Position numbers and translations under genes: made by a program. DNA of 60,774 nucleotides, filler included, from Sphacelaria rigidula (lineage: Eukaryota), in NCBI GenBank assembly GCA_964200075.2. It is 8 parts of 8 records of this genome, joined end to end, with 100 filler letters (N's around TTAATTAATTAA, not from the genome) between each part and the next. Parts side by side here need not be neighbours in the genome. Positions count along the whole stretch, not along the records: positions 7,611 to 15,120 come from CAXNAA020014576.1; 7 more parts are not named here. The stretch is one strand, 5' to 3'. Position 1 is the stretch's first letter; each line of letters starts with the position of its first letter. Shown in pieces: positions 7,511-37,947 of this stretch. The notes beneath the pieces are model-generated. The model did not search any database, was not told the DNA's origin, and was given only the letters and a program-made list of their open reading frames with translations.

Positions 7511-7610
7511 NNNNNNNNNNNNNNNNNNNNNNNNNNNNNNNNNNNNNNNNNNNNTTAATTAATTAANNNNNNNNNNNNNNNNNNNNNNNNNNNNNNNNNN
7601 NNNNNNNNNN
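7511..7610. other. Artificial scaffold-joining linker (N44-TTAATTAATTAA-N44); identical linkers at 15121-15220, 22730-22829, 30339-30438, 37948-38047, 45557-45656, 53166-53265
   Basis: Seven identical 100-bp spacers carrying a six-frame stop 12-mer. They separate segments of 7510, 7510 and 6 x 7509 bp (length-sorted), which sum with the linkers to 60774. Confidence 0.97.
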
Positions 7611-8592
7611 AGGTACACAAGTGTGTTCATACTTCACCTGTAGGAGCTGGATCGCATAGAAACTGATCTGTCCGACGTGTGAAAGAAACGCCAACGAATG
7701 CGCTAAAAAAAATCGAAAATCAAATCAGACGCCGTTAAGGGCTCGTACATAAATAACTTCCCAGACTTATGAGACAGAGGAAGTATACTTCGGAACCCAC
7801 GGCATTTTAACCCGAATCCGAGACAGGTAGTTTCCTGGTACTTTGATTTTTGAAATGTCAGCGAATCACAAGGAAGGATAATAATTCAAGGGTAAAGCTT
7901 TGCCTTACCAGACCGCTAGATGATGCATGCATGGCATCCGCGATCCTTTTTCTCCACATGACCGAAATAGTAGCAGCAAACGAGAAACGTGTGACCTCCT
8001 CGTCTGGTCCGTGTTACGTACTGTATTCCGTGCGAGGTAACCGGGTCGCCCTCTCCCTTTTGTGCACCCCGAATTCTCCAGAAGTATGCGGTCCACTCAA
8101 AAATCAGAATGGAACGCTTTTGGACATTAAAGCGCGAAATAAACATGGAGAGAAGAGACCTAGGGTTAGCGTTTTTGACGCATGAGGACATTTTTTTTCT
8201 GTGATTCGTTCTGTTAACACACTTAATCATGTTGTCCTTGTTCAGGGGGAGTGGGGTAGGGGCGATGAGCTATGTGGGTAGTATACAGCTTTTCTTTTTC
8301 CAGCACAGCATCATATATATTTTCAAATGAAGCGAGCTTTTTGTGATGTGGGAAAGGCTGATTTACCCAAATTCTCGTTACAATTTTTTGTCGAAGAAAA
8401 AAAAGTATACAAGTGAAATATAAATAATTAATGAATGAATTAAATGTTGATTGAGGATGGATGGTTGGATGGTTGGTTGGATTTATTTTTTGGACAAGGG
8501 AAGAACAATATATTCTTCACATGGTAGTACAGAAGCAGTACTGTGCAAGTCTCACACTCCCTGCACTGGTGGTGTGGTGTTTGTACCTACAG

Positions 8593-8790
8593 GAAAGGGA
8601 GACAACAAACTGGGCAAACTCCTTGAGAAAGTGAGAGCGGACGCGCTGTCCGGCAAGGACACGGACGTGTGGTGCACCATGCGATTCGAGCTGGCGCGGC
8701 CACTGGACGTGGCTCTTAGCCTCATCGTGACTAAGGGCGGTAACGTCGTGGCGGAACCTTCGTTCGAAGGGAAGCCAGTCTTGAAAATGG
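8593..8790 (+). CDS. Exon of NADAR-FHA fusion protein: NADAR/YbiA C-terminal motif, linker and start of FHA
   Basis: CAG acceptor, GTGAGT donor, phase 1-1. Reads GKGDNKLGKLLEKVRADA...KPVLKMG; G-x-G-x-N-x-LG-x-LL-x-x-[LV]R is the NADAR C-terminal motif. Confidence 0.8.
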
Positions 8791-10471
8791 GTGAGTTCTG
8801 ACGTCTCCCGAGGAGATCATCAACAGGCGTGTTTCCGCCGTCCATCATGGAGTCACGTCGCGGTAGGGGTTGCATATTTGGGCCCAGATGTTCTCGTTGA
8901 GGATTTCCTAGGAGTGAGGAGTTACACCAGAATATGAGGGTCGGGACATTTCCGGTTTTGAAACTTTGAAATCTCACCAAAAACACAATTTTTTCCATTT
9001 GGAGCATCAAAACCTGCAGAACTGCCAAGTTTGAGGATGATCTTAGCTTTTCTACAACATATATACGGGAAATCGTCACGGGGCTGTCTGAGTCTTTTCT
9101 ACGTATCATGAGTGGAAGTTAGACGACGCCAAAAGTCCACATCACCGAAACATTACGGTTTCGGGTATAATTCGACCCAGTTGGAACCGTTTTAAAATAT
9201 GTTTCTCCCGTTAGATTCCCGAGGTGATGACGGTCACTACGATTCAAAGCATGAGGAGATTCGGTGGAAATTAGGCTTGGCATTCGTGTTTTCAATTTCA
9301 GAACAACTTGAAAGGCGCTGATTGGTCGAGGCACATTTTTGTCCATGGCGCCCCCGCTACAGTCTTAAACAAAAATCCGGCTTTGTCACTGCCTTCGTCT
9401 GTTCATTGCGGTCAGTGTGATACCATGTATGGGATTACTGGGTGCGTATTGCAGAAGGCATTTGCTGATGACAGAATTTTGGGTCTTTCGCGTGAACCAG
9501 CCTGTTGCAATTCAAACTCGAGCGTTTTTTTTTTTCGTGCGCCCCGACCGTGGCACCCACTAGTCCACGTGGTAATTCTTGGTGTCTGTGTTTCGATAAT
9601 GCAGCGAAGGCTGCATGTGGTGGTGTGGAATAGTGGGGAAGGGATTTTCGTCTTGCTCAGCGGTACTGAAGTCCTTTTTTCCTGTACATTTCTAAGGAAT
9701 GCTGCTCTCTCTCTCTCTGTCTCATGTTTCTCTCTCTCTGCGTCTGTCTATCTGTCGCGCGCGCGGCAATAAATATCATGGTCGGTCGCGTGTTGTTGTA
9801 GGGTCTCCGTGAAAATGTGTGCGTGTGTGTGTGTGCCGCAACATTCCAGTCTTTGTTCGAATGATGCAGCGGTATCCCTCCCCCCCCCCCACTCCCCCAA
9901 AACCAGCCCAAAACTGTTACGAAGAAAATGGTCATGCAGCGCCTGGTGTTTGGTTTCAGGTTGCTTGAAGCGCCTCATACGGGCGACACTGCCGAGAACG
10001 ATTCCAAGCGCGTGGGACTTCCTAGCTGCTCGGTGTGCTCGGCGTTTGTCATTTCGATTCGCACGTAGATCTTGCCTCCTCAAACCAACCACTTTTCTGG
10101 AGGAGGGGGCTGTCGCAGCATCACTCGTTCTACGCATTTTTTTTTAATTTTTATCGTTGGAATGATAATCAGCGAGCGGAATAATTGCGAATAGTTCTCT
10201 TGGTATTATGTCGGTGCTGGTGCCTGTCGAGTGTGTTCAGGCTTAGACGCAACAGCGGTCAAGATGATGCTGAAAATAAATAGCACGAATGACGCAGCGC
10301 AGTATGCTCTTCTTGAATCGACAAGTCGGAAGGGAGATATTCCGCGCCCGTTTCCTCTTCCCTTTCCACCTAGGACGGGCATAAGATATGTGAAAGGTTT
10401 TGTGCAATGCATGGAAGAAACGTAATGAGCGCCGGAATGTTGAAGGTGACTTTATGAGGAGTAGGGACGGT

Positions 10472-10549
10472 GCTCCGTCTCGAAAGGGATGCGTGGTCAA
10501 TGGTCAAACGACTAAGGCGAGCAACAAATGAGTACGCCCCCCCCCCCCT
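10472..10549 (+). mobile_element. 5'-truncated copy of the C-tailed retroposon 3' end; similar copies at 11030-11112 and 17533-17614
   Basis: gctcc.tctcgaaagggatgcgtggtcaat.gtcaaacgactaagg...gcaacaaatgagtacg followed by a C-run. Near-identical at 17533 and homologous to the reverse complement of 42940-43022. Confidence 0.7.
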
Positions 10550-11199
10550 TCCCACCCGTCATAGGACAAGGGTTAGGTTCGAGTGTAGTGAAACGAAGCA
10601 GGGTCATGATCTAAATCACAGTGTCGTGGGGGAGGGGTTGATGGAAATCACGGTAGAGTTGATGTGAGATATGTACTAAAAACGTGCGCGCGCACGCGTA
10701 AAAATTCCGGAACGGTGTGCTCTGAACTGCTGTGTTGGTCACTATCCGTGTTTTCCTGTGAAGTAAGACATGGGTCAGAGCTTTCATCTTGGGATCTGCA
10801 GTCAAGTTTTGTTGGAAATCACATGGCAAGACAGTTTTACAGAGGGTCGGAAACGAGGTTACTAAGCAACGCGAGAACTGATGGCAGTTGCCCGACACAC
10901 TACTCTGTAGTACTATTCAGACCCTGTACCTACAGCGTCCCCACCCTGTCCCGTGAGCCTTATATTTATGAGTGTCGGATTGTCTCCCCCGCCCCCCTGT
11001 CCTGGAGCCTGGTTCGTTGAAAGGGCCCCGCTCCGGCTTTGTAGGGATGCGAGGTCAATCGTCGTATGCTACGGCATCAACGCATTCAAAATCATGAGTA
11101 CATCCGCCCCCCATCCCCTGTCTCTTGTATATTTTCTCCGTGTTTGTGTCTTTCTTTCGATTCGCTGTTTGCTGTTGGGTTCATTATCCACCGCGACAG

Positions 11200-11336
11200 G
11201 TAAGCTGACTGAAAACGAGGTGGTTATGGCGCACCCCTCCGTGAGCAGGTCCCACGCCTTGCTTGTCATCGACAGGAAGTTTGGCGCGTTCCTTGTGGAC
11301 CTGGGAGCGTCAAATGGCTCATTTGTCAACGGGCGG
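11200..11336 (+). CDS. Exon of NADAR-FHA fusion protein: FHA domain core
   Basis: CAG acceptor, GTGAGC donor, phase 1-0. Reads (G)KLTENEVVMAHPSVSRSHALLVIDRKFGAFLVDLGASNGSFVNGR with the FHA motifs SxxH and DLxSxNGxFVNG. Confidence 0.88.
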
Positions 11337-12010
11337 GTGAGCAACTTGACCATCCCGAGAGAGGCTGTTTCCGAAATAAAGAACGAAGAAAAGAAGATGG
11401 AAATGATATTAATTGGGGTATCTGACGTGATGCTGGATTTTTTTTTTTTAATGAAGATTCGTTTCGGGGATGACACGTGCTATTAATTCTACTGGAAGGA
11501 TCCTACTCGGTAATGGCGACCTCGTTTTGCGGTGGCGATATACCACAGTAACGACTGTTTTTGTCCGAGTTGCGTCTTCTATGTGACCACGGTTGGATTC
11601 CTGGGCCATCAGTTAGAGTGCGACAATCTGCGGCTCCAAGTTGCCGTGAGGTGTTCTACGTACGTTGCGGAGGTTGCACAGAGCGAGACTTGGGGGAGCA
11701 CGTGCACGCCGTGTCGATTACACTTCCGCGAAATGCGGTTTGTTGCCCCGTTTCGGCCGTCAAGCGGCTGTTGCGACGCGATTGAGCTTAGAGTACCGCC
11801 ACAGCAAGGTCTACGCAGGAAGGAGTACTACATGCGGTACAGGCAGCCAGCTGTGTACCTACGGTACGACTACAGGCTTGTGTGTAGTGGAGGTGTCCCC
11901 TGCATGTCTGCAGTACAGTCCGCAGAGAGTGCACAACAACAGAACAACCCGATTGCAGTCAGCGACATATTAAGCGCCGCCGCTGCCACCCTCGCCCCCC
12001 TCATCCGCAG

Positions 12011-12193
12011 CGTCTGGCGCCATTTGTTCCTGAGCCGATCACGGCCGGCAGCGAGGAGCTCAACTTCGCGAAGTCAAAGCGCACGTATGTGTTATCGAGA
12101 GTGGAGAATGACCTCAGGGAGGCCAAGAAGCGTGAGCTCTATGCCAGCATGTCTAATCCCGTTGCGGTGTCCAAGCCGGAGCCGGACTCGACG
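12011..12193 (+). CDS. Exon of NADAR-FHA fusion protein: FHA C-terminal strands plus helical segment
   Basis: CAG acceptor, GTGAGA donor, phase 0-0. Reads RLAPFVPEPITAGSEELNFAKSKRTYVLSRVENDLREAKKRELYASMSNPVAVSKPEPDST, continuing the FHA pattern in frame. Confidence 0.8.
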
Positions 12194-12267
12194 GTGAGAC
12201 TTGTGTACAGTACCGTAGGTTATAGGTGACATCGCCGGTACGTAGTGTACCACCCCTCCCTCCTCTA

Positions 12268-12298
12268 GGGTTAGGGTTGGGGTTAGGGTTAGGGTTAG
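12268..12298 (+). repeat. Interstitial telomere-type (TTAGGG)n tract
   Basis: gggttagggttggggttagggttagggttagg, followed by a motif (aaagcgatgaggta.cacaaatta..gttggcgg) repeated near 14218. Confidence 0.75.
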
Positions 12299-12775
12299 GT
12301 TTAAAGCGATGAGGTACCACAAATTAACGTTGGCGGGAATAATAAATAAATGAAATAAATCTTTGTTCGGATACGGTTTTTATTTTTTGGTTGGGAGTGG
12401 TTGTGGTTGGATGATTATTTTTTCGAAAAAGGGAAGACAATAATATGGATCGGAGAATAATTTAATAACTCGGCAATTTTCGCAATCAGACCAGCTGCCG
12501 GCGCAAATAATTCGCAAGAAAATGTATGAGTAGACCAGCGACCCTTCGCAGAAGAGGAGCGTACGTATATATTTTTTGTCGACCCCAGTTGTTGTTGATG
12601 TTGTTGTTGTTGTCTTCACATTAAAAGCCGTTCCTATATCTGNNNNNNNNNNGGTACATTGGTACTGGGCATCTTATGCGGACGCCTTCCGTGGTCACAG
12701 GCTAGCAGAAGAAACCCAGTGGTATCCGTTATAGTCCGCGATCGAGCGACCTGTGTAGTTGGGGAGAACGGTTTT

Positions 12776-14130: not shown

Positions 14131-15989
14131 TAATGGTAGATTCGCCGATTTACACGATGAGCACGAACGGGGAGGATGCAGACATCCCAACACCCTTGGA
14201 ATAGTGATGGAGGCGCAAAGCGATGAGGTATCACAAATTAGGGTTGGCGGCGGGAGATGGCCGTAGGGAATTATGGTTAAAGACGACGGACAGGGCGATA
14301 AGCTCTGAAAAAGCTAGGAGGCCGACGGTATGTGCTCATAATGTCTACCATACTACCTTTGGGTCCCACCTTGGAAATATCAGTGCATTAGGTCCGTTAC
14401 CTCTGAAGGTGCAGGGTACAAGGTCGGCGAGAGTGGGCGAGAGTGGGCGAGGTTTTGACGTACGTCTGAGAAACGCCAGTAGGATTTTTTGGAACATCAG
14501 CTTAATTCAAAAATAGATTTTTCAGGACGAGGGGACGACAATAATAAAGTCATAACAAACGTGAGATGATAATAAATCCAAAACCCAGACATGTAAGTAA
14601 CAGCGTGAAGGTTGACCACCTTACATGCAAATCGAAAGTACGGAAGTTATAACCAGTACGGATAGGATAGGGTCATCACCCCTCCATGTCAAATTCATAT
14701 TAAGGTTGGGGTCTCGTGGTGAGATATCCATAAAATCTTACCGGTTTCCAGTAGGCGGTGGAAGTCTGGTCGGCCATTTCCACAAATTTCCGATACTGGG
14801 TGCAAAAGGCGCCCAATGAAGGGAAGGGGTGGATGGTGCTCGACATAAATGTCAAGACCTACTGCACTTATGAAACAAATACCTTACCGATGACCGACCA
14901 CATGACCTGCGAGAAGGAGCACCAAACGGTACGTAGACCTCCTAGAGATCTTCAAGGATAAAAGCTGGTACAAAGTGTGGGGGACTCGTTGGCCAAGCTT
15001 TCGACAGCGAACGTCTACTCGGAAGCATCAGTGGAGTAGCGGCCCGTGGTGAATCGTACACGGAGGGGAAATAATGATGTACGGGACATCCCGATGTGAG
15101 TAAGACCTTGTGTTATGCAANNNNNNNNNNNNNNNNNNNNNNNNNNNNNNNNNNNNNNNNNNNNTTAATTAATTAANNNNNNNNNNNNNNNNNNNNNNNN
15201 NNNNNNNNNNNNNNNNNNNNATACCTGTCTCCCTCTCTCTGTCGTCCCGACGTGCACACCGTATCAACACCTGGGTGTGTGGGGCTTGACCAATTCATCG
15301 CGGAACAAAATCCCATCTCTTCGTGCTCAAATAAGGCTCATTATTAGTCGACGCTTTTTATTCGGGAATCCCTGAAATTTTTGGCGTTTTCAGATCCGGC
15401 GTTCAACGTTCTTCGAAAATGAAGCGGCTTGAGCTTTTCTCCAGAGCTTCACGTCAAGAGAAGTTTGAACACATCGGACAACAGCGCAACAATTCGCAGC
15501 GCTACCCTGTGAGCACGCCGTGGAGCTCACAAGCGTGCGAGAGTAATCAGTAACCTTGCTAGTGATGCCCTGGGCCATGTCGTAGAGTAAACAGCACCGT
15601 GGTTGATGGTATCCATACCTATACGGTGTGTGCGTCGGCAGCGGTGGTGGAGCTATTGGAGTCAAGCACGTAGATCCAATTCCAGTGGGTGTATCTGAAC
15701 ATATAAACATCCCTCCTGATCTGATACCTGAAACCCCTCTTACAAAAACAAAACGAGAGTGCAGGGAGGAAATTCGGCCTTTCGAGCAGAAACCCCCTTC
15801 GCACATACTCCCATGCCTGTGCTAGCGTTTTTTGTAGACGCCCAGGCCAGGGTACATTCACGGTACTCCGGAAAACGCCCTACAAACCCCATGCCCCACA
15901 AAGTAGCGTGAGCGGCATCACTCGACATACGAACAAATGCACTACGGGAACCATGACCTGAAATGTCTACAGCTGAAAAATCGACAGAC

Positions 15990-18900
15990 GGACATCACCA
16001 AAACCTAATGCGCCTATATGCTGTCACCCATGTTCATCGAGGCGCGCCGATGCTCCTTGAGCAACATGACTGGGAGCAGCTTCGTCAGAAGATCAGCGTG
16101 ATGCCACTCTGAATCTACATGCATCATCAGGATTACTATTGTCTTGACCGAGTGCGGAATATAATGTAATCTTGTATCTATGTGCATGCTGCACCTGAAC
16201 TAAGATGGCTTGGCAGCCAGAACACTAGCCCCCTCGTTGCCCTCGTGAAGAACATCATTTCACTCTGCCGCATGTCCCAAAACAACCCTTGATCGTAAGA
16301 AAGACAGGACTATCCCAGCAATCATGCATTCCCCCGTGCCTTCTTCAATTGCCACGTACCCGGCTTAGGTAGTGGATAAGGTAAGACAGTGTTACGTACG
16401 ACTGGTACCAGACACCACCACTGCTCCACACGTTACCGCTATACCTAAAACCGATCACCTGTCCATCTCTTTCTTCGCATAATCAGCATCGCAGTACACC
16501 GGAGCACACTCTCTCCAGACTTGAACGTCAAAACCGCAGATCTTAGCCCTCTTCAGGTATGCCATTACATTTAGGATCGACTTCATCTCAGTGCCTCTCG
16601 CATGAATCGAGTGACTAGCAGGCTAGAACCCGGACTACATTGGCTATATCGGTTCTAGTCATACCTGCCAGTCACACCGAGCCTCCTACGCCACTACAGT
16701 ACGGACGATTTACCACATAGTCTTCCTGCGTCACCGGTTTTTAGTCTACAGAAACTGAAGCGAGGATATCTGAAAAACTAGTAACCTCCAACGCTTCAAC
16801 AGGGTATCCATGAGTAGACAGCGAACCTTCCCCGCTGTTTCTCTATTTTGCGCACCCGATGTACCACTCGACCTCACCAAGGTTGTTGGGAACTCTCTTA
16901 TTGATAATCTCACGCATCCTCTCCACTTTTTCTGTGTGACCTCTGACTAAAATATCGTTTATATCCACGCCTAGAATAACCTGTGCAAGTCCCCCGCTTC
17001 CTCTTTCTTAAACACCCAAGGATCAGCTTGACTTTGTATCATCCCTGCGTCCTTCATCAGTGTTTCGCTCGGGAGTAGGAACCACTGCTTCCCTGCCTGC
17101 TTTGACTCCATACATCGTATCGGGTCTTACCGCGCTTCCGATCAGGGGGTCACACCCTTCTAGGAGCTCTATGTGCACATTTGTGTCCATTTTTGCTCGT
17201 ACAAAAGCCTGGATGGCATCAAGGTGATACAGTTCCTATCCCACCTGCACTACAGCGACCATGGCCAACCTTTTTGATGTCATGGCTGGAGTAGCTCCAA
17301 ACGCCTTGGAATAGCCTACATGAAATATCTGTCCGACATCGCTTGCGACGAATCTTTCCTTCGGTTGGTGATCCGTCCATCAGCGTCGACGCTTCCGGGT
17401 AAACACGCCCTCTTTGCTTCCGCCGAGCCCCAATCATGGATGAGATCTTGAACAGTGCTCTGAAAAATCACTCTGCTTTCCCCGCTCCGGCAAGGAGACA
17501 GTGAAGTCATTCCAGCCCCCCCCCTCTCGCGGGCTCCATCTCGAAAGGGATGCGTGGTCAATAGTCAAACGACTAAGGTCAGCAACAAATGAGTACGCCC
17601 CCCCCCCCCCCCCCTTCGCGGCGCGACTTCCCCTCCCCTTCGGAGTTGTGTAGCGAGAACGACACATGGCGGGAACCGCGTGTTGAAGTGCCCACGGCTG
17701 TGATTCGCTTCGCGGACTCGCTGTTGACCGGCCTACCTTTGACGTGGTCATCCCTCGCTTAGCCGGGCGTCGGGACCGCTTGTGCTCTGGTGTGGGTCGA
17801 CCTTGGGATGGGTCATCAGTCTTTCCCCTCCAAGCATCCACGGCAAGGTCTCATCTGGCCACGTAACTCCATCCCGAGCTGCTTTGCGGGTTTGTGCAGT
17901 AGGTCCTCATGTGCTTGAGCGTGAGGACAGTGAAAATCGTTCATATCAACGATCTAGAGGTTAGGTGATGTCCCCCGGGCAATCATAGCGCATGCCGACC
18001 CATGCTCGTCATCACTCCCTAGATCTAGTTGGTGAGCGTGTATTATCAGGAGGTTATGATTACCGGGTATGTTCATGGTATTGCCTGACTTCAACCCAAC
18101 GCGAAAGCCGTCACGTGATCTAATGTAGGTGTGGCCTGCAGAAGAGATCCTAGTCGGTTAGAAACGATGTTGACGAACGCCTGGTGCATGATCTTCGTGT
18201 TTTACATGGAGCACCACATGACGACCGTCGGATCTGAAAGTGAGAGTCAAATTACCTCGACTAACAATCGGGTAAGTACCACCGCCCGCACACCGCAGTA
18301 CCGTATCCCTGCATTCTCGGTACTCCATCATCGTACTAGAATGTGGTGAAACATGCTGGGTTGCCCCCGCGTCAAACACCCACGGTTCGCCCCCATCTCG
18401 CTGCTTTACACCCTCCGTATCAACAGCAAACGCACACTGACCTGTGGTATCTTCGGTGGTCTTCGTCATGTCAATGCTGGTGAAAGCCGTCTTCTCAGCA
18501 TCTGAAGACATCGTCGCTCACCGACCCCCCCGCCGAAACCACATATTCTCCAAACTGCGGGGAGTGGAATATCTTGTGGCGTTTTTTCCGCACTTGCAAC
18601 AGCACCTGTTCGGACAATCTCTCGACCGATGCATCATCTTCTGACACATGTGACAGTCAGTGCCACGTTGTCGTAACCTTCGATTGACTATGCGACGGTG
18701 GAGTCGACGACTGGCTGCTTCTGTGCTCGCCCCCGCCGCCACCGCGACCTGGGCCCTGGCTGTTTTCCGGTGAAATGCGTGAGAGGATCGCGTGCTTAGA
18801 GGACCGCGCCGTAGTTCAAAATACCTCAGGATCGACGTTTTTCGAAGCTAATCGGGTCAGTCCCTGCAGGTACCATGCCCCTGACCCTAACCCCAACACC

Positions 18901-22301: not shown

Positions 22302-24393
22302 GTGAGTACTGACGGTTTGATTTGCCGATGTAGGGCATTGCACGGGAGGGGGTTACGGTATGCTGCAATGCGAGCAGAGGTAGCATCACTTGGGCAGGTT
22401 AGAACCTAGTGAAAACAATGCCTCGGACGTTGACGTTGCTGTTGCTCACGTGACTCACGTGACTCACGTGCAAGGCTCATAGTTTTCTTCCCTTTTTTTC
22501 TACCTTATGCAACGTTTTTTGCGCACCGAGCATCTAGTTTTCATGCAACACAATCATGCGAATGCTGATACCATGGCGGCGGCAATAGAGGTCTCCCGTC
22601 TGCGACGTCAAGCGATGCTACTTCGTGACTGGTCCAATGTGATCAGGGTGACAGTTGCGATGGATGCCCTACTTTGCTTGCTAGGCTACATAGATTGTGA
22701 ACTGGCTGTGACAGTGATTAGGGGGGGCGNNNNNNNNNNNNNNNNNNNNNNNNNNNNNNNNNNNNNNNNNNNNTTAATTAATTAANNNNNNNNNNNNNNN
22801 NNNNNNNNNNNNNNNNNNNNNNNNNNNNNTGTGACAGCGTTACAGTTTGATATATTGTATCTGCATTGACAACGGAAAACGACGGCCGCTAAAAGGCAGC
22901 GTGAGCGCTCAGATAGATTGCTCGCAAGTTTCAGTTTTATACGTGGTTGAGCGGGAGGGATCGTGGAACATTTTCTTGCTTGCATGTACAGAATGCAAAA
23001 GCCGACCGAGGATGCTCCCCCTTTCCCAACTCTGACGACCACGATCTCCCGCCTGGCCAGCAGGGGTTCGTGGAGAGGACAAGCTCACCGTTGCAGCCCC
23101 ATGCGCGTTGCTTGTGTGAGTATCATTTTTTTGTGCGCGTTCTGTACAGTTGGCTGCGGAGGGTAGGGTGAAGATTTCCTCAGACCTTTGACACAAAATT
23201 AAAACACCACCCAACCCTACCTGCACGCATCACATGCCGCACGTGCACCCCCACTAAAAACGCCACGCCGCTCAGTTGTTCCACAACATCCCTGTGTATT
23301 GACCACACGCACGGGCTACTGTTGGTTCGACAATGACTACTCTACTCTACTCTACTCTACTCAACTCTACTGTGCTGTGCTGTTTAAGTTTTGCTGTCCT
23401 GAGACAGCAATTCCCACTGCCCGCGGTCTATACAGATATCCCTCAAGTGCGGCAAATGCGTGGCGATGACCTTTTCTACGTAAGCGTTGTCTGTCCACCG
23501 AAAACTAGTCCGAACCCCCGACGAAAAAGAGTAGGAAGAGGACATCCAACTGATGCATGGGCACCTAAATGGTTGGCGAATATACAGGAAGTTGAACAAC
23601 TCGAGAGTGGGGACGCATTGGATATCCACACTAGCCACCTTCCTATTTTCTCAACGATCCCATGATCTTTTATTTCAAAGTCACAGTCTATGGACTCGAG
23701 TTGCGGAATAATCTGTATGGTGGAAAATAAGCAATATTTCACATAATATCTAAAACCAATTAATATCGGCCTCAAGAGACAGAATCAAAATGATGCTTTG
23801 TGTGTGTGTGTGTTTCAGCTAATAACTCCGAAACTGGTTCCAGAGAGACCTCGGTAAGGTGTTCTTGCTTTGCCCCCTTGGACCAGCTAGTAGTCGGTGG
23901 TATCGACTAGCAGTCTGCAATGGACGAAAACCGTGGACGTTACCCTCCTCGACGGCTATTTCGTTTGCCGAACCATGAAACCCGCCTAATTCCAACTTCA
24001 CCAGTGTGCTCTTTACAGCATGGTTTGAGTTATCGTGTGTTAAAGGTAGGACCTTTTGTGAACCTTGCGACATGCGCACTCAGAAAATCAACGAGAGTTG
24101 CCTGCCTGACCGTGAACGTACCCCTGGGATACGTAAACTGTAGACGTGGAAGTCGTACAAAGTGCTAGCCGGCTGACGCGCCCGCTTCTTTGCTATTGCT
24201 TGTGGGTCACCATTGCATCCATTCGGGATAACCCCGCTGGCTCCAACCTTCAAGTGTACTCATAGTCCGCCACTTACGACAACTAGAGCTCGGGCTACGT
24301 ATCCGTTGAAAAATTCCCCAAAGGTGGTGTGTGATGTGATTCCAACCCCACGAAATTTGACCAACCGTGCTTTCCCTGCCCCGAAATGTACAG

Positions 24394-27051: not shown

Positions 27052-28035
27052 CAAGGTGCCTCCGGCGATACCTCACTCGAGATTCGATAGTTCAGAACTA
27101 AAACTTGATGGCAGGTGCGCATCGACCGGTAGAAGCCATCACTACTGACGGAGTATCCTGGGGGGGAAAATTGCCCTTGACTCCAAAATGTTTGTACTAC
27201 ATATTTCAATATATCAGTAGCGATGACCTTCGAATGGTCCCTGCTCAAATGTTCAGGTCTCAACCCTGAAACAGCGAGCGAGAAACCCACAATATGTACG
27301 TTCCCAAGGGCTTGCAAGTGCTATAAATTGGTGTAGACATTCCCCCAAAGATTTGTTTCAGCATAACTTTCAAACGACCAGTTAGGTGTCGAAAGAGGTA
27401 ATCGCTTTGATATCGTACCCCAACTATCAGGATGATCCACTAAGAACGAAGTCATGTTGATTTTTCTATCAGTTCATCCCTTAACTGCCACCATTGGGCC
27501 GTATCGGATATGACAGGATAGCCCGAAATGATCAAGAGGGCCGAAATAACAATCAGACCGCGCGGCGCACTCCTGGGCACTTGTACGGCATCAAGGACCC
27601 TAATTGTTGTGCTATATGTTGCTGCTGCTCATGCTGTTTGCCCCGGAGACACTTTTTGGTCCCAGGTAGGGGGACCAACTTGCATCGTTCCTAGAGATGA
27701 AGGGGATATTTTTTGTAAGTTTAGTCTATTGGATCTGCCCTCCCCCCCCCGCGCGCGCGCCCCTTTCCCACAAACAGCGGTAGTGACGACCTTCGGCTGG
27801 TAAATTCGCTCCAAACCTTGAATTTCAGGTGCTGACTCTCAAATCTCGAGCGAACAATCACAGGAGACGCTTTTCGTCTCTTTCGGTGGGACTACTGTAG
27901 TCTAGCGTGTACCTCGGAGTGTTCATAATGGCCACCAATACGCAGCCCTCCCTGCCCAATCCGTTCCTCCAAATCTCATGGCTCTCATGGCTCTCATGGC
28001 TTGTCCCGTTGCAACTGCTTGTACTGCTTGTCAAG

Positions 28036-28332
28036 AATATTGCCGCTGCAACTGGAGTACCGTATCGAGACATGATATTCTTCGACGATGACCCCTCCAA
28101 CGTCAACGTGGTGTCAAGGCTCGGCGTATGCTCTGTTCTTGTCAAGAAAGAATCGGGACTCACGTTTGAGATAACCCACTTGGGGTTGAAGAAGTACGGA
28201 GCTGTCTGCAAGTCCCGGTCGAGCTTGAGAGCGTGGTTGCAGCCCCCCAAAAGCAACGGAACACCGACGACGAGGAGTGAACCAAATTCGGAAAATCAGG
28301 TCGACGCGGCTAGGAAAACAAATTCAGGGTGA
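28036..28332 (+). CDS. MDP1: Magnesium-dependent phosphatase 1, last exon
   Basis: NIAAATGVPYRDMIFFDDDPSNVNVVSRLGVCSVLV... to TGA. Contains HAD motif IV (MIFFDD) typical of MDP-1. Confidence 0.88.
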   Translation, partial: NIAAATGVPYRDMIFFDDDPSNVNVVSRLGVCSVLVKKESGLTFEITHLGLKKYGAVCKSRSSLRAWLQPPKSNGTPTTRSEPNSENQVDAARKTNSG

Positions 28333-33545: not shown

Positions 33546-36500
33546 ATGTCGATCACGGAGGTCCCGGTTGTAAAGCCAGCGGAAACAACCGTAACCCCAG
33601 TCGTTCTAAGGGAAGAGTTGCGGCCGCCCAGTTACGGGAGTTTGTATTCTGAGGGTGCCTCTAGATCGTTTTACACGAAATACATGGAATACAAAAGGAG
33701 GGTGGAGCATGTGAATGCAGGGGGTGCGGTGAGGCATCAAGTGGTTTCGATGGCGCAATTAGTGCCTACACCCTTACAACGCGTCTTCGCGAGGTGGCTC
33801 CATGAAAAGCATACCATAACGCCGCTACGGTTGGCCGCAGCGATAAAGAAGCATGCAGGGCATGCGGCAGGAGCGGAGGTAGAGCTTACTCAGGCGTCCG
33901 CGGCCGTGGCGAAGGCTGTCGCAATGAACCACAAGGGGAGGACCATGCGTGAGAGGGTGGAGCCCATAATGGGTAAGTTGGAGACGTATTTTTATGAAAA
34001 TCCCAACGTAGAGATGATTCATCGTTCGTCCGATGGGAAATTTCGCCCAGGGCCCGCTGCGGTGGTCACGAAAGCGACGGTGGAGGATCTGGCACCGGCG
34101 GAATTCAAGCATGCCGTGCTCGTACAGTTGCAGCACGAGACAAATTGGAAGTCGGACCTGTATTTAGTCATGAATACCGTGGTGGCTGAAGCTCAGGCAT
34201 GGCGGCGGGTCGAAGTATTCGGAAAATCATCCACTTCGTCGCCGCAGTCTTCGAGCTCGCGTAACCGCGGATCAAAATACGCAGGTAATGCCGCCTCCAA
34301 TATTATACTTGCTATCAGTGTGGCCAGGTAGGTCACATCGCACGGAAGTGCCCAACGCCTTCTGAGGGGGAGTCTGGGAAGACGAGTGCCGCGCGCCCTC
34401 GCAATCACAAAGGAGGGAAGGGTAATCGGGGTGGTGTTGAAGGCGGATCCTCCACCGGTGGAGGTGTACAGTCGAGTTCCCGACAGCAGCAGCAGCAGGG
34501 GCAGCGGCGTCAGCAGGGGTCCGGGGTTGGGTCAGGCTCAGTCGCAGGGGCTGCTGCTCCACAACGGGCAGTGCAGGTGGGACCGACCTTTCTAGTGTCG
34601 GGCTCGGTGCCGGCGCCGCCAGCAGCAGAGCAAGGCGAGACGCCGGCTGCGAAGCCGACCGGTTTTCAGCTGAAATTTGGATCCGCTGCTGCGTCGGCCG
34701 GGGTACCGCTGCAATTTGGTTCTGCGGGCGGGGCTTCGTACCCGCCGGCGGTGCCGGTGACCCCACGGGGGGCGTCTATGCCTGCGCCGCGCGCGCAGCC
34801 GTGGCGCCAAGTGGGGAATACGACCCATCAGTCGGCGGAGCAGGTGCCGGTTGAGGACCGAGACAATTATGTCCCTGTCGAGTTATATCTCCCCGATCAA
34901 CGGGCTCGGAGAGCTATATCAGTGAACACCGGCGCCCACTTCACGAGCGTGTCGGTGCTAGTTGTGGGGATGCTGGAGCGTCTACTCCCCGGTGAGCAAA
35001 TCCGAATTCCGTTCTCGCTTGGGGCGCGGCAGGCCATCACCGGATCGGGGCAACGTATAAATGTGACGGAGCGTACAAGTCCCCTACAGTTGGCGTTCCT
35101 GACCACTTGGGGGGCAGAAAAATTACTCCCAATATCGTTGGCGATCATGCCGGGGACGGATGGTGTCGTTCTGTTGGGTCTACCGACGCTTCGGGGACTC
35201 GGAGTCGATCTGTATGATCGGTTGTTGGAGTCCCTAAAAACGCAAATGCCGTCGCCCGTTTCGAGTGTCCAGAAGCCTTCTTTTTTTACCAGTCACAGAG
35301 TGAGCTTGTGGGTTGATGCTCTCCAGGAGGCGGGGGGGAAGGTGTCCGGGGAGCGTGATGAGGCGGTGGAACGCTTGGCAGAGCGTGGCCCCGATATGTT
35401 TATGGAGCCGGCGGAAGAAGAGTCCGCGCGAAAGGCTGCGCTTGAGGAAAGCGTGACGGATGCTGTGGCAAATGGCCTCACCGTCTCAAACGTGGAGCGC
35501 TTGCGTGGCATACTGTATCGCCACGTTAACGCGTTTCGTCGTGCGCTGAGGGGTGATCCTCCTGCGCGCGTGGAACCCATGAGGGTTACACTAAAGCCAG
35601 GGGCGATGGCGGTGAAGGTAAAACGGAGGAGGTATGATCCGGTAAAGTCCAGTTGGTTAGCTTCTTGCATGGGAGCTCTTGTGGCGTTTGGGTTGGTGTA
35701 AAGGAATTTACAGGCGATGTGGTCCAGTCCAGCGATGGCGGTGCCGAAGAAGGACTCTTTCCGTCTTGTCAGCGATTACGGAGCCGTCAATGATCAGGTG
35801 GAGAAGTCGCAGGGTGTCATGCCCAATCACGAATCCGACATGATAGACCTGTTGAGTGCGCGATGTTTCGGGGAGTTGGACCTCCTACAGGGGTACTGGC
35901 AGATCTCGTTGGCCGAAGAGGCGCAAGAGATATTCACAATCACGGCTCCGTTTGGCATGTTTACCCCGCAAAGAGTACCGCAAGGCGTGTTGAATGCTAC
36001 TTCCTATTTTCAAGGTCATGGAAGACCTTTTAGATGGCTTGAAATACAAGATTTGGGTGGATGATGTCTCTTTCTTCGCGGATACGGAAGACGAACTGTT
36101 GGATACACCTGATGCAATCTTGGCTTGCTTAGAGAGTGTTGGTCTGTTTGCAGCTGCCCACAAGTGTACCTTTTTTGCTAGTGAACCAGTGTGGTATGGG
36201 AAAGTATACTCACGCGGTCGCGTCTCGCATGACCCGGTCGGCTTGCAAGGTTTGTCTGACATGCGGCGTCCAGAAATAGCCGCAGAATGAATGCACTTTC
36301 TGCACGCAATGAACTGGTTGCGTACCTCGTTGCCACGTATGGCCGAAGTAGTGGCGCCCTTACGCGGTTTCCTAGAGGAACTCATGGTGGGGGCTGCAAG
36401 GCGCACGAAGCGGGTGGCAAAAAATCGTGTTATTCCACCCGCCTCGTGGACGGAGGACAGGCTGCAGGCATGGACGGCAGCGAAGGATCTGGTGGCTCAT

Positions 36501-37947
36501 GCCGTGACGCTGTTCCATCCCCGCCCCGGTTGCCAGGTGCTGATGTTTTCGGATGCATCCGAGTGTCATTGGGGTAGTTTTGTAACGCAGGTGCCTGGTG
36601 CAGAAATGCAACAACGGTTGCCGGTTGAAGACATGACGCATGAACCGCTGGCTTTTCTGAGTGGTAATTTCAAAGATTCACAGATGCGTTGAGCAGCCAT
36701 TGCCAAGGAAGGTTTTGCTATCGTGAGCACTTTTCGTCGTCTTGAGCATCTATTGTGGAATGGCGTACACATTTTCACGGATCACCGAAATCTAGCGTAC
36801 ATTTTCAACCCGGAGGCATGCGTGACGTCTGTGTCGAAGGCGTTGGCACAGCGGTTGGAGGAGTGGATAGAAGTATTAGGCCAGTATCGGTACACGATTT
36901 GTCATACTTCGGGTGAGCGTAACGCGCGGGGTGACTTGCTGTCGCGCTGGGTAAATATTCCCACTTTGCCTGCGCGCGCTGTGGCTGTGTATGGTCCGTG
37001 CGAACCTGATGACTCGATGTCGTCCCAATCTGTTGTCCGCCAAGCGCAACGAAAAGACCTTGGGGCCGAAGATGCGGATGTGCAATCTTTCGAGTCGGAC
37101 GTTGGTATTGCTATCTTGGACAATGAAGGTCTGTTTCGTGTGCATGTGCGTGGCCGAAACGTTTTGTGGATTCCGAGTTCTAACAAACAGTTGTAGGTAC
37201 GTCTGATGATTTGCGCGCACATGCACGACGCCGGGCATCGTGGTGTGGCTGCGACGCTCGTGCGCTTGCAAGAGTTTTGTGTCTGGCAGGGGATAGAAAC
37301 TAATGTCCGCGAATTTGTCCGCCAGTGTCCTCACTGTGCTGACTCGAGGGCGGGCGACGTTGTTCCCCGCCCGCTCGGTAAAAGGGTCCATGTGACCACG
37401 CCGAATGAAGTCCTTCATTTTGACTTCTTGCACGTGGGCGAGTGTGGCCCGCTAGCTTCCCAAGGTTTGTCGGAGGATGCTGGGTTCCGATACATTTTGG
37501 TAATCATGGATGATTTGAGCAATTTTGTGGCTCTGGAACCAGTAGCAGTGTGTACTGCTGAATCGACTGCTGCGTCTTCGCTAAATTGGTGCCAAACTTT
37601 GGGGGTGCCCCGTGTGTGAGTGAGTGATACCGCCAAGCATTATTTCAAGAATGCGATCTTGGCTAGGTTGCAAGAGGCTCTGCGAGTTGATCACCAGTTT
37701 GCGGTAGCGTATTCTCCGTGGTTTAATAATGGTACGTGCGAACGCGTGGTGGAGGAAGTAGTTCGTACTCTTCGCTCTATTCTCCTCGAGCAGCGTCGAG
37801 AGGCGACCGAGTGGGTGGACGTGTTGCCCGCTGTGCAATGGGCGCTAAATACAGCATATCGCCGTCGGTACGATAGTACGCCGTATCACGTGATGTTTGG
37901 CCGTGCCCCTCGGACGTCTTTCTCGGTGCTGGCGTCCTCGTCGGAGG
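33546..37947 (+). mobile_element. Decayed Ty3/Gypsy gag-pol (gag-PR-RT-RNase H-IN), truncated at scaffold end
   Basis: Zinc knuckle CYQCGQVGHIARKC (~34310, frameshifted from gag). Protease site degenerate (VNTGA). RT WSSP...LDLLQGYWQ...PQGVLNA...WVDD. RNase H SDAS, TDHRNL. Integrase H-H-C-C plus HFDF, SD, NGTCER. Several stops and frameshifts. Confidence 0.95.

Follow-up and report, generated by a model that had tools for sequence, protein, structure and literature searches.

Three families erase ADP-ribosylation, of which NADAR is the newest. The domain was reportedly defined by de Souza and Aravind in 2012, and domain fusions may be listed there. YbiA of E. coli and the NADAR of Phytophthora nicotianae are N-glycosidases or guanosine ADP-ribosylhydrolases, and to our knowledge guanosine-ADP-ribose is the one substrate class that has been shown for every NADAR tested on RNA. 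According to the available text of the sources cited, NADARs reverse guanosine ADP-ribosylation on single-stranded DNA (PMC11543638) and on RNA (PMC11833690), and the physiological roles of the eukaryotic ones are stated to be unclear (PMC11125620). Three active-site classes, with Glu, with Asp and, in phage, with His, are distinguished in the accessible sections of PMC11543638.

Enzymes that rely on an FHA domain to tether a nucleic-acid-modifying domain, a general logic that the protein described here shares, include PNKP, aprataxin and APLF, which act in a DNA-repair context and have no RRM and no RS tail. FHA domains also occur in NIPP1 (PPP1R8), kanadaptin (SLC4A1AP), SNIP1 and DDL of Arabidopsis, which are proteins of nuclear RNA processing. 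In FHA domains, an Arg normally contacts the phosphate of the ligand.

Exons and transcripts of the Sphacelaria rigidula locus

We analysed a window of 60,774 nt, by which we mean the whole stretch of Sphacelaria rigidula DNA under study, filler included. The features at the locus are as follows.

8593..8790, + strand: exon A, 198 nt, in frame and with AG/GT borders; tblastn E 8e-31 to the brown-algal protein P0005
8791..11199, + strand: intron 1, 2409 nt, GT..AG, with dispersed repeats inside
11200..11336, + strand: exon B, the FHA core, 137 nt; Pfam FHA match; tblastn 89% identity to P0005
11337..12010, + strand: intron 2, 674 nt, GT..AG
12011..12193, + strand: exon C, 183 nt; tblastn E 8e-21; GT donor after it
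12643..12652, no strand: irregular run of 10 N, the only one in the window, 450 nt past exon C

Each of the three exons has AG before it and GT after it, and joined they form a single open frame of 172 whole codons, KGDNKLGKLLEKVR...PEPDST. The first two bases of exon A complete a Gly codon opened in the preceding exon, and its final base is the first base of the Gly codon in the GK motif. Between these, exon A codes for the final helix of NADAR, GKGDNKLGKLLEKVRADAL (~8593-8650), which is followed by a linker helix, GKDTDVWCTMRF, and by the FHA domain's first strands, to ...KPVLKM; in the structure model of the ortholog P0006, the region matching exon A holds helices at residues 149-163 and 166-174. 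Exon B contributes the K of the GK motif, HPSVSRSH with the Ser-x-x-His loop and DLGASNGS with the Asn-Gly loop, and exon C completes the FHA domain with strands reaching ...SKRTYVLSRVE (~12106) and goes on with a helix, NDLREAKKRELYASM, and then a linker that has PEPDST at its end.

A tblastn comparison of three brown-algal proteins with the window gave exactly three segments, the exons together matching residues 144-318 of these proteins. Because the segments abut in protein coordinates (P0005 144-212, 210-255 and 254-318, with E 8e-31, 6e-21 and 8e-21), neither of the two introns contains an overlooked exon.

Splice joints were sought in 7611-12642, and intron parts without RNA cover were not counted as evidence. 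We used three cDNA-like runs, X1, X2 and X3, which are three samples of one study and whose RNA kind is only guessed; the shares of the three that were compared were 0.13-0.14. Each run yielded one contig (2433, 2731 and 2323 nt) that carries both joints with 0 mismatches and covers 8592-8789, 11199-11335 and 12010-12195 contiguously. The joints are listed as GT..AG and, when cut one place further right, correspond to 8790/11200 and 11336/12011. The DNA run X5 contained neither joint, and its contigs 8493-8890 and 11039-12261 cross the exon-intron borders. The sequence-only reading that drew our attention to this locus had proposed three GT-AG exons in one frame, and the frame check, the tblastn segments and the contigs all bear this out. 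Its prediction that transcripts would join 8790 to 11200, placing NADAR before FHA, agrees with one contig in each of X1, X2 and X3 (the RNA being guessed), and the NADAR-to-FHA join is real and transcribed.

The same contigs run beyond the three exons into sequence from outside the window, by 28-470 nt on the upstream side and by 1610-1884 nt on the downstream side. When residues 1-150 and 311-420 of an ortholog served as tblastn queries (word size 2, E up to 200), only chance-level matches were obtained, the best at E 0.54, and neither the NADAR body nor RRM exons were found in the window. For residues 311-420 there was nothing credible in 12653-60774, and RRM_1 was not found anywhere in the window. 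That the NADAR body lies outside this sequence, as first suggested, still holds by tblastn. The run of 10 N is probably a scaffold gap, past which the rest of the gene was not found; downstream of it we saw only retroelement pieces and one Acid_PPase exon.

Repeats and retroelements are numerous around the locus, and a repeat in intron 1 (10486-10512) recurs at 17547-17573. An Rfam scan of 7611-12642 gave no match.

Very probably, the three exons in the window form the middle of a brown-algal gene that is expressed and whose product, going by its orthologs, consists of NADAR, a rigid linker, FHA, an RRM and a long Arg-rich tail ending in RS repeats. From the orthologs and the lengths of the RNA contigs, we infer that the NADAR body and the RRM are present in Sphacelaria rigidula as well. 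For annotation, this means that the locus should be treated as a real, expressed gene with its remaining exons missing from the scaffold.

Architecture of the family and the NADAR active site

The brown-algal relatives contain Pfam NADAR, FHA and RRM_1 domains in this order, followed by an Arg-rich tail with an RS end. In P0005, P0006 and P0012, all scores are above the cutoffs: 80.8-87.6 bits for NADAR (cutoff 35.1), 43.5-47.9 bits for FHA (cutoff 20.7) and 60.5-62.6 bits for RRM_1. Across orthologs, RRM_1 (PF00076) scores 55-63 bits, and distant members reach 62.5-73.3 bits for NADAR. All three domains were present in 12/17 of one set of matched relatives. Among the 90 cluster representatives that we scanned, 60 had NADAR, FHA and RRM and 17 more had NADAR and FHA, and the three-domain fusion occurs in at least 60 clusters at 50% identity. 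Two distant members have a CCCH zinc finger after the RRM. The named members of the family are brown algae and one xanthophyte. In the P0006 model, the mean pLDDT of 10-residue blocks is at least 91 over residues 21-300, unbroken from NADAR to FHA, and none of the family's invariant residues is lost in the part encoded by the window.

The NADAR identity proposed from the window is supported by full-length relatives. Both domains of the proposed NADAR-FHA fusion stand, but the protein, going by its orthologs, has three domains plus a tail, the RRM and the Arg/Gly/Asp-rich, RS-ended tail being the further domains that had been expected after the last exon. As to the architecture being uncharacterised, our search found no paper characterising NADAR-FHA-RRM proteins in the parts of the literature available to it, and nothing on NADAR in brown algae was among the matches listed, but the predicted proteins are already in the public proteomes of Ectocarpus, Undaria, Laminaria and Discosporangium. 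The family is uncharacterised, and the Sphacelaria gene is one of its real, expressed members.

Exon A alone has no Pfam match and covers only about the last 16 of the 163 positions of the NADAR model (PF08719); exon C alone has no Pfam match either. The part of NADAR encoded in the window is the C-terminal helix, whose motif G-x-G-x-N-x-L-G-x-x-L-x-x-x-R is present as GKGDNKLGKLLEKVR and aligns, via P0006, to GKGKNRLGYLLMELR of YbiA. The window copy has G146, N148, G151 and R158, as do 68-69 of the 69 members. Among solved NADARs, the closest is E. coli YbiA (PDB 2B3W; E 1.4e-12 by sequence, TM 0.73 by fold), while the Phytophthora nicotianae enzyme (PDB 8BAU) is matched at E 0.0075 and TM 0.56. 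A comparison of P0011 with PDB sequences gave no NADAR match. The orthologs have the E-H...K motif, the D..WG motif and the C-terminal helix in common with both enzymes, and SEHYFQAQK of YbiA aligns to VEHALQASK of an ortholog. In YbiA and 8BAU, NADAR stands alone, whereas here it is fused to FHA, an RRM and a basic tail.

The active-site Glu and Lys are E43 and K50 in the Phytophthora enzyme and E88 and K95 in E. coli C7 (available text of PMC11543638). In the relatives, as these positions fall outside the part encoded in the window, the Glu is kept in 48/69 members and the Lys position holds Lys in 44 and Arg in 16. The Glu that defines the YbiA subfamily (E125, five residues before the D..W motif) is missing: as judged from sequence alignment and not from residue-level structural superposition, the column holds Tyr in 30, Phe in 17, Trp in 9, Asn in 7, His in 2 and Ala in 2 of the 69 members, and is therefore aromatic in 56/69. 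The adjacent column has Glu in only 7/69. Lack of the catalytic acids would, by the sequence-only reading, have told against it, and this is partly the case: the E43 equivalent is kept, but E125 is replaced by Tyr, Phe or Trp, an arrangement outside all three classes given in the accessible sections of PMC11543638. Mutation of the structurally equivalent Asp in the E. coli C7 NADAR (D171A, D171N) abolishes efficient hydrolysis, as described there. Because the YbiA-type Glu is aromatic in most members, hydrolase activity of this NADAR is uncertain, and in view of the C7 mutants the domain may be inactive or may use other chemistry.

The FHA domain, the RRM and the tail

Exon B alone matches Pfam FHA (PF00498) with 40.5 bits (E 3.7e-10, cutoff 20.7), and in the P0006 model strands extend across residues 184-287 with pLDDT above 90. 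Its best fold match in Foldseek is kanadaptin (E 1.1e-10, TM 0.80 on target, rmsd 2.0); others are the spliceosome chains 8i0p_X and 7dvq_X, DDL (3vpy) and NIPP1 (TM 0.74). By sequence against the PDB, we obtained NIPP1 (2jpe) at E 1.4e-7, kanadaptin (4h87) at 3.7e-5 and SNIP1 at 0.098, and the family profile matched NIPP1 at 1.5e-17. On the basis of nearest neighbours by sequence and fold, with no tree, the FHA domain is of the kanadaptin/NIPP1/SNIP1/DDL type, and it has in common with these proteins the HPS(V/I)SR.HA loop and a C-terminal S.R.Y.L strand. SNIP1 occurs in spliceosome structures, going by PDB entry names. FHA domains of PNKP, APTX and APLF were absent among the 32 PDB sequences with E <= 1 and among the best 50 Foldseek matches listed, and the analogy with DNA-repair scaffolds that had been drawn from the window is therefore weak.

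The unusual Gly-Lys in place of Gly-Arg in the phosphothreonine pocket had been read correctly: the window has MGKL, and across the family the Arg position holds Lys in 52, Ser in 5, Asn in 4 and Arg in 3 of 69 members. NIPP1, TbPar42 and ArnA have GR in FHA alignments. Kanadaptin, SNIP1 and Arabidopsis DDL likewise have the canonical Gly-Arg, and these three and NIPP1, unlike our family, have no NADAR. The other two loops are retained, as SRSH and SNGS in the window; among the 69 members, Ser is found in 69, His in 67, Gly in 62 and Asn in 42.

Past the equivalent of exon C, the orthologs continue with V-Y-V-G-N-L, the start of the RRM, for which Foldseek gave RBM7, the RES-complex RRM and SF3b49 as fold matches. 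The tail is Arg/Gly/Asp-rich with terminal RS repeats and ends in RSRSRS... in brown algae and distant members. As in SR and SR-like splicing factors, there is a single RRM and, behind it, a tail that is long, disordered and rich in Arg, with RS repeats at its end. Unlike those of SR proteins, the brown-algal tail is mostly RG/RD/RE-rich with a short RS run, and classical SR proteins do not have an enzymatic N-terminal module. The closeness of its FHA to that of kanadaptin, NIPP1, SNIP1 and DDL, together with the RRM and the tail, indicates a protein of RNA processing more than one of DNA repair.

Possible roles of the protein

We tentatively read the protein as a nuclear RNA-processing factor of SR-like build whose NADAR acts on an ADP-ribose adduct of an RNA base, a plausible reading that we hold at somewhat less than even confidence. 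The RRM and the basic tail would place the protein on RNA or an RNP, the FHA domain would dock it on a phosphorylated partner in the splicing or RNA-maturation machinery, and NADAR would act on an N-glycosidic ADP-ribose adduct of a base in the RNA. Catalysis is the least certain of these steps because the YbiA-type Glu is missing. The Lys that takes the place of the phosphate-contacting Arg in most FHA domains of the family also speaks against this reading.

It is possible, with a modest chance of being right, that NADAR serves instead as a non-catalytic reader, its ligand being ADP-ribose, a base that carries ADP-ribose or some related nucleotide, which might be an NAD-type RNA cap, and that the protein is an RNA-processing adaptor. 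The aromatic replacement of the Glu, with no conserved acid nearby, speaks for this, as does the fact that the positions at which the Phytophthora enzyme contacts its ligand, as described in the available text of PMC11543638, are largely retained (Glu 48/69, Lys/Arg 60/69, Asp 57/69, Trp 63/69). The phosphate-binding Arg of the FHA domain is altered too, so both ligand pockets look specialised. However, phage NADARs with His at the E125 position are still active on guanosine-ADP-ribose, going by the sections available of PMC11543638 and PMC11125620, and therefore the replacement alone does not mean inactivity. The strong conservation of the rest of the active site fits an enzyme equally.

The DNA-repair side of the model put forward in the sequence-only reading, in which FHA recruits a de-ADP-ribosylase to phosphorylated DNA-repair scaffolds, now looks improbable. 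The FHA fold is intact, NADARs do take guanine ADP-ribose off single-stranded DNA (available text of PMC11543638), and E. coli ybiA lies with dinG in a LexA-controlled operon (PMC11125620, section 2.1). The repair FHAs missing from both sets of matches tell against it, as do an FHA whose nearest neighbours come from RNA-processing proteins and the presence of an RRM and an RS-ended tail.

Still less probable, and in our view very unlikely, is a metabolic damage-control N-glycosidase for riboflavin-pathway intermediates, of the kind established for YbiA and the plant COG3236 proteins, that has been incidentally fused to regulatory domains. YbiA is the closest solved NADAR, one relative carries the JGI name 'ribA/ribD-fused uncharacterized protein', and PMC11543638 cites, in its accessible part, a riboflavin role for bacterial and plant NADARs. 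Yet no RibA or RibD domain was found among the 101 proteins scanned, the fusion partners bind RNA and phosphopeptides, and the Glu that defines the subfamily is absent.

That the exons are stray pieces of a dead gene or an assembly artefact is almost certainly wrong. In its favour, nowhere in the 60.8 kb are the NADAR body or RRM exons present, the 10-N gap lies close to exon C and the locus sits among many repeats and retroelements. Against it, the spliced contigs are free of mismatches, their extensions on either side fit the number of ortholog residues, 143 upstream and 390-560 downstream, and all invariant residues are intact.

Returning to the reading as an RNA-processing factor, the combination of NADAR with an RRM, a splicing-type FHA and an SR-like tail offers a concrete place to seek endogenous ADP-ribosylation of RNA bases, and the change from Glu to an aromatic residue is a natural experiment on the NADAR active site. 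More speculatively, and as something of a long shot, the family may form a fourth NADAR active-site class, aromatic where YbiA, the DarT-linked and the phage enzymes have Glu, Asp and His, joined to a Lys-variant FHA and an RRM. Its members might then be dedicated to erasing, or else to reading, an endogenous mark of the ADP-ribose type that sits on the bases of nuclear RNA or on NAD-type caps, and might do so within the machinery of splicing or of mRNPs, both in brown algae and in many further microbial eukaryotes. If this were true, eukaryotes would own an RNA-base ADP-ribosylation pathway that goes beyond defence against toxins.

Exons and their transcripts

The sequence-only reading had proposed three phase-compatible GT-AG exons in one frame, and this is borne out by the borders, by the open frame and by contigs that carry both joints. 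The window is eukaryotic DNA of ~50% G+C, and each exon is preceded by AG and followed by GT:

8593-8790, + strand, exon 1, 198 nt
11200-11336, + strand, exon 2, 137 nt
12011-12193, + strand, exon 3, 183 nt

When joined, they read KGDNKLGKLLEKVRADAL...MGKLTENEVVMAHPSVSRSHALLVIDRKFGAFLVDLGASNGSFVNGRRLAPF...SKRTYVLSRVE...PEPDST. Exon 2 on its own gave an above-threshold match to Pfam FHA, at 40.5 bits (E 3.7e-10), which confirms the FHA identity given earlier; exons 1 and 3, each scanned singly against Pfam, had no match. In tblastn searches of three long relatives against the window, only the three exons matched, and their segments abut in the coordinates of the Undaria protein P0005 (144-212, 210-255 and 254-318), so no exon is missing inside the two introns.

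Contigs from three samples of one study (runs X1, X2 and X3, presumed to be RNA) were placed on 7611-12642. Sampled words of 8400-12400 were found at a share of 0.13-0.14 in each run, and the exons make up 518 of these 4001 bases (0.13). One contig per run (2433, 2731 and 2323 nt, respectively) spans all three exons, with 8592-8789, 11199-11335 and 12010-12195 contiguous and 0 differences, and both joints are GT..AG once the cut is moved one place rightward. The predicted junctions, including 8790 to 11200, are therefore present in the presumed RNA runs, and neither is found in the DNA run X5, whose contigs pass through the exon-intron borders. Upstream of exon 1 the contigs hold a further 28 (X1), 470 (X2) and 192 (X3) nt, and downstream of exon 3 a further 1884, 1740 and 1610 nt. 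These flanks match nothing within the window and fit the orthologs, in which 143 residues precede the window-encoded part and about 390-560 follow it. On a simple reading, the extra matched base 8592 is the G that ends the preceding exon and completes a Gly codon, and 12194-12195 are the GT that opens the next exon with a Val codon (compare STVYVGNL in the orthologs).

The surrounding scaffold

The earlier claim that the N-terminal part of NADAR is outside this scaffold agrees with our searches: neither the NADAR body (residues 1-143) nor the RRM and tail (residues 319 onward) had a credible tblastn match in the 60.8 kb window at E up to 200. A run of 10 N at 12643-12652, 450 nt downstream of exon 3, is the sole irregular N run in the window and looks like a scaffold gap. 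Either the flanking exons are outside the scaffold, or this gap marks a break or a mis-join in it. Paired 44-N blocks with 12 bases between them recur with a period of 7609 (7511-7610, 15121-15220, 22730-22829 and onward), and look more like a mask applied to the window than like gaps in the assembly. A short telomere-like TTAGGG-type repeat lies at about 12262-12309, ~70 nt past exon 3 and ~330 nt before the 10-N gap, and was skipped as a repeat in contig placement. Other features are as follows:

7611-7788, dispersed repeat
10457-10546, dispersed repeat in intron 1
10971-11138, dispersed repeat
17547-17573, dispersed repeat
18161-18517, - strand, retrotransposon remnant with a Pol beta-barrel domain
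27901-28329, + strand, ORF segment matching the C-terminal third of Pfam Acid_PPase (E 2.9e-11)
34289-37616, + strand, retrotransposon remnant with zinc knuckle, RT RNase H and integrase zinc-binding domains

The copy at 17547-17573 repeats a 27-mer of intron 1 with one mismatch. Summed contig depth in the dispersed-repeat bins is very large in cDNA-like and DNA runs alike, and these repeats had no Rfam match in the scanned 7611-12642. The retroelement pieces and the Acid_PPase segment lie downstream of the 10-N gap; the latter probably belongs, as an exon, to an unrelated gene.

A family with NADAR, FHA and RRM domains

Exon 1 used as a query retrieved 11 proteins from 131 candidates. Three are long, from Undaria (P0005, 879 aa), EukProt (P0006, 712 aa) and Laminaria digitata (P0010, 597 aa, partial), with 77-78% identity across exon 1 and precomputed NADAR, FHA and RRM domains; the rest are one protein with NADAR only and seven short read-through ORFs without a Pfam domain. 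The brown-algal proteins score 80.8-87.6 bits for NADAR, 43.5-47.9 for FHA and 60.5-62.6 for RRM_1, all over cutoffs, and the suspicion that more domains follow the last exon thus proved right in the orthologs, where the RRM is followed by a tail. Family tails are Arg-rich with RS repeats at the end, and disordered by model (pLDDT < 50). The three domains also occur together in five relatives at 32-38% identity, one of which has an extra CCCH zinc finger. Such a finger directly follows the RRM in the distant members P0019 (455-474) and P0026 (445-471), and in P0019 a weak match to the Torus domain was seen as well; both are further RNA-binding modules.

Of 1.84 billion cluster representatives searched with a profile, 1228 matched at E <= 1e-30, many of them multi-RRM proteins. 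From 150 listed matches, the Pfam scan covered the 90 rows of P0026-P0125 with at most three matched stretches, leaving aside 10 rows with 4-14 stretches (mostly multi-RRM) and P0126-P0170.

Domain sets among the 90 scanned representatives
NADAR+FHA+RRM: 60
NADAR+FHA: 17
FHA+RRM: 5
NADAR only: 8

Many representatives with incomplete sets are short, and probably truncated. All named members are brown algae (Ectocarpus species, Undaria, Laminaria, Discosporangium, Choristocarpus) and the xanthophyte Heterococcus. All component domains are already known, and the fusion is present, unnamed, in public proteomes. It is not known to have been characterised, and our literature search found no paper describing or testing it, although the NADAR-defining paper was outside its scope and may hold an earlier mention; the available portions of PMC10789625, PMC11125620, PMC11543638, PMC11833690, PMC13224862 and PMC13720257 contained no description.

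Active site, FHA relatives and a proposed role

We aligned 69 family members (9 first matches and 60 three-domain representatives), omitting P0010, P0013, P0015 and P0016 as near-duplicates or partials. The window copy has all family-invariant residues of its encoded part. Equivalents of the Phytophthora NADAR active-site residues E43 and K50 are mostly kept (Glu in 48/69; Lys in 44/69 and Arg in 16/69), as is the D..W motif (Asp 57/69, Trp 63/69). The column that HMMER aligned to the second active-site acid, the YbiA Glu, five residues before the Asp, holds Tyr in 30, Phe in 17, Trp in 9, Asn in 7, His in 2 and Ala in 2 of the 69; the family has one extra residue nearby, and the neighbouring column is Glu in 7/69 only. 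Schuller et al. 2023 (PMC11543638) describe this Glu as the mark of the YbiA subfamily, with Asp in its place in DarT-linked NADARs and His in phage NADARs, and report that mutation of the equivalent Asp abolished efficient hydrolysis. Because this column reads mostly Tyr, Phe or Trp, the family would, on its sequences, belong to none of the three described classes. The relatives thus keep the Pfam NADAR domain and, mostly, the E43/K50 equivalents, while the YbiA-type Glu is replaced, and the N-glycosidase activity proposed earlier is uncertain. That NADAR serves here as a binding module and not as an enzyme is the main alternative, and we consider it unlikely.

The nearest solved FHA domains by sequence are those of NIPP1 (E 1.4e-7; 1.5e-17 with the family profile), TbPar42, archaeal ArnA and kanadaptin (3.7e-5), with SNIP1 at 0.098. 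An AlphaFold model of P0006, built from the 69-sequence alignment, is confident over residues 21-300 and the RRM. Among the 50 Foldseek matches listed for it, the best is the kanadaptin FHA (E 1.1e-10, TM 0.80, rmsd 2.0), and other top matches are YbiA, chain X of two human spliceosome structures, Arabidopsis DDL and NIPP1; chain X of 7dvq is named SNIP1 in the sequence-search entry list. The FHA Gly is invariant in the family and is followed by Lys in 52/69, Ser in 5/69, Asn in 4/69 and Arg in 3/69, whereas NIPP1, TbPar42 and ArnA have Gly-Arg. The next FHA loop is kept (Ser 69/69, the following Arg 66/69, His 67/69). The sequence-only reading had likened this FHA to those of the DNA-repair proteins PNKP, aprataxin and APLF, and the likeness is weak: none of these is among the 32 PDB sequence matches (E <= 1) or the 50 Foldseek matches listed, where NIPP1, kanadaptin, SNIP1 and DDL are nearest. 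Its DNA-repair model also fits the fusion partners poorly, and seems to us improbable. A riboflavin role has the same poor fit and is more doubtful still, and a dead gene fragment, against which the transcripts speak, is scarcely credible.

The locus itself is securely identified. From the domain types, the FHA relatives and the reported action of NADARs on guanosine-ADP-ribosylated RNA (PMC11833690), we tentatively favor an RNA-processing factor. The RRM and tail would place the protein on RNA, the FHA would dock on a phosphorylated partner from the splicing or RNA-maturation machinery, and NADAR may act on an ADP-ribose adduct of an RNA base.
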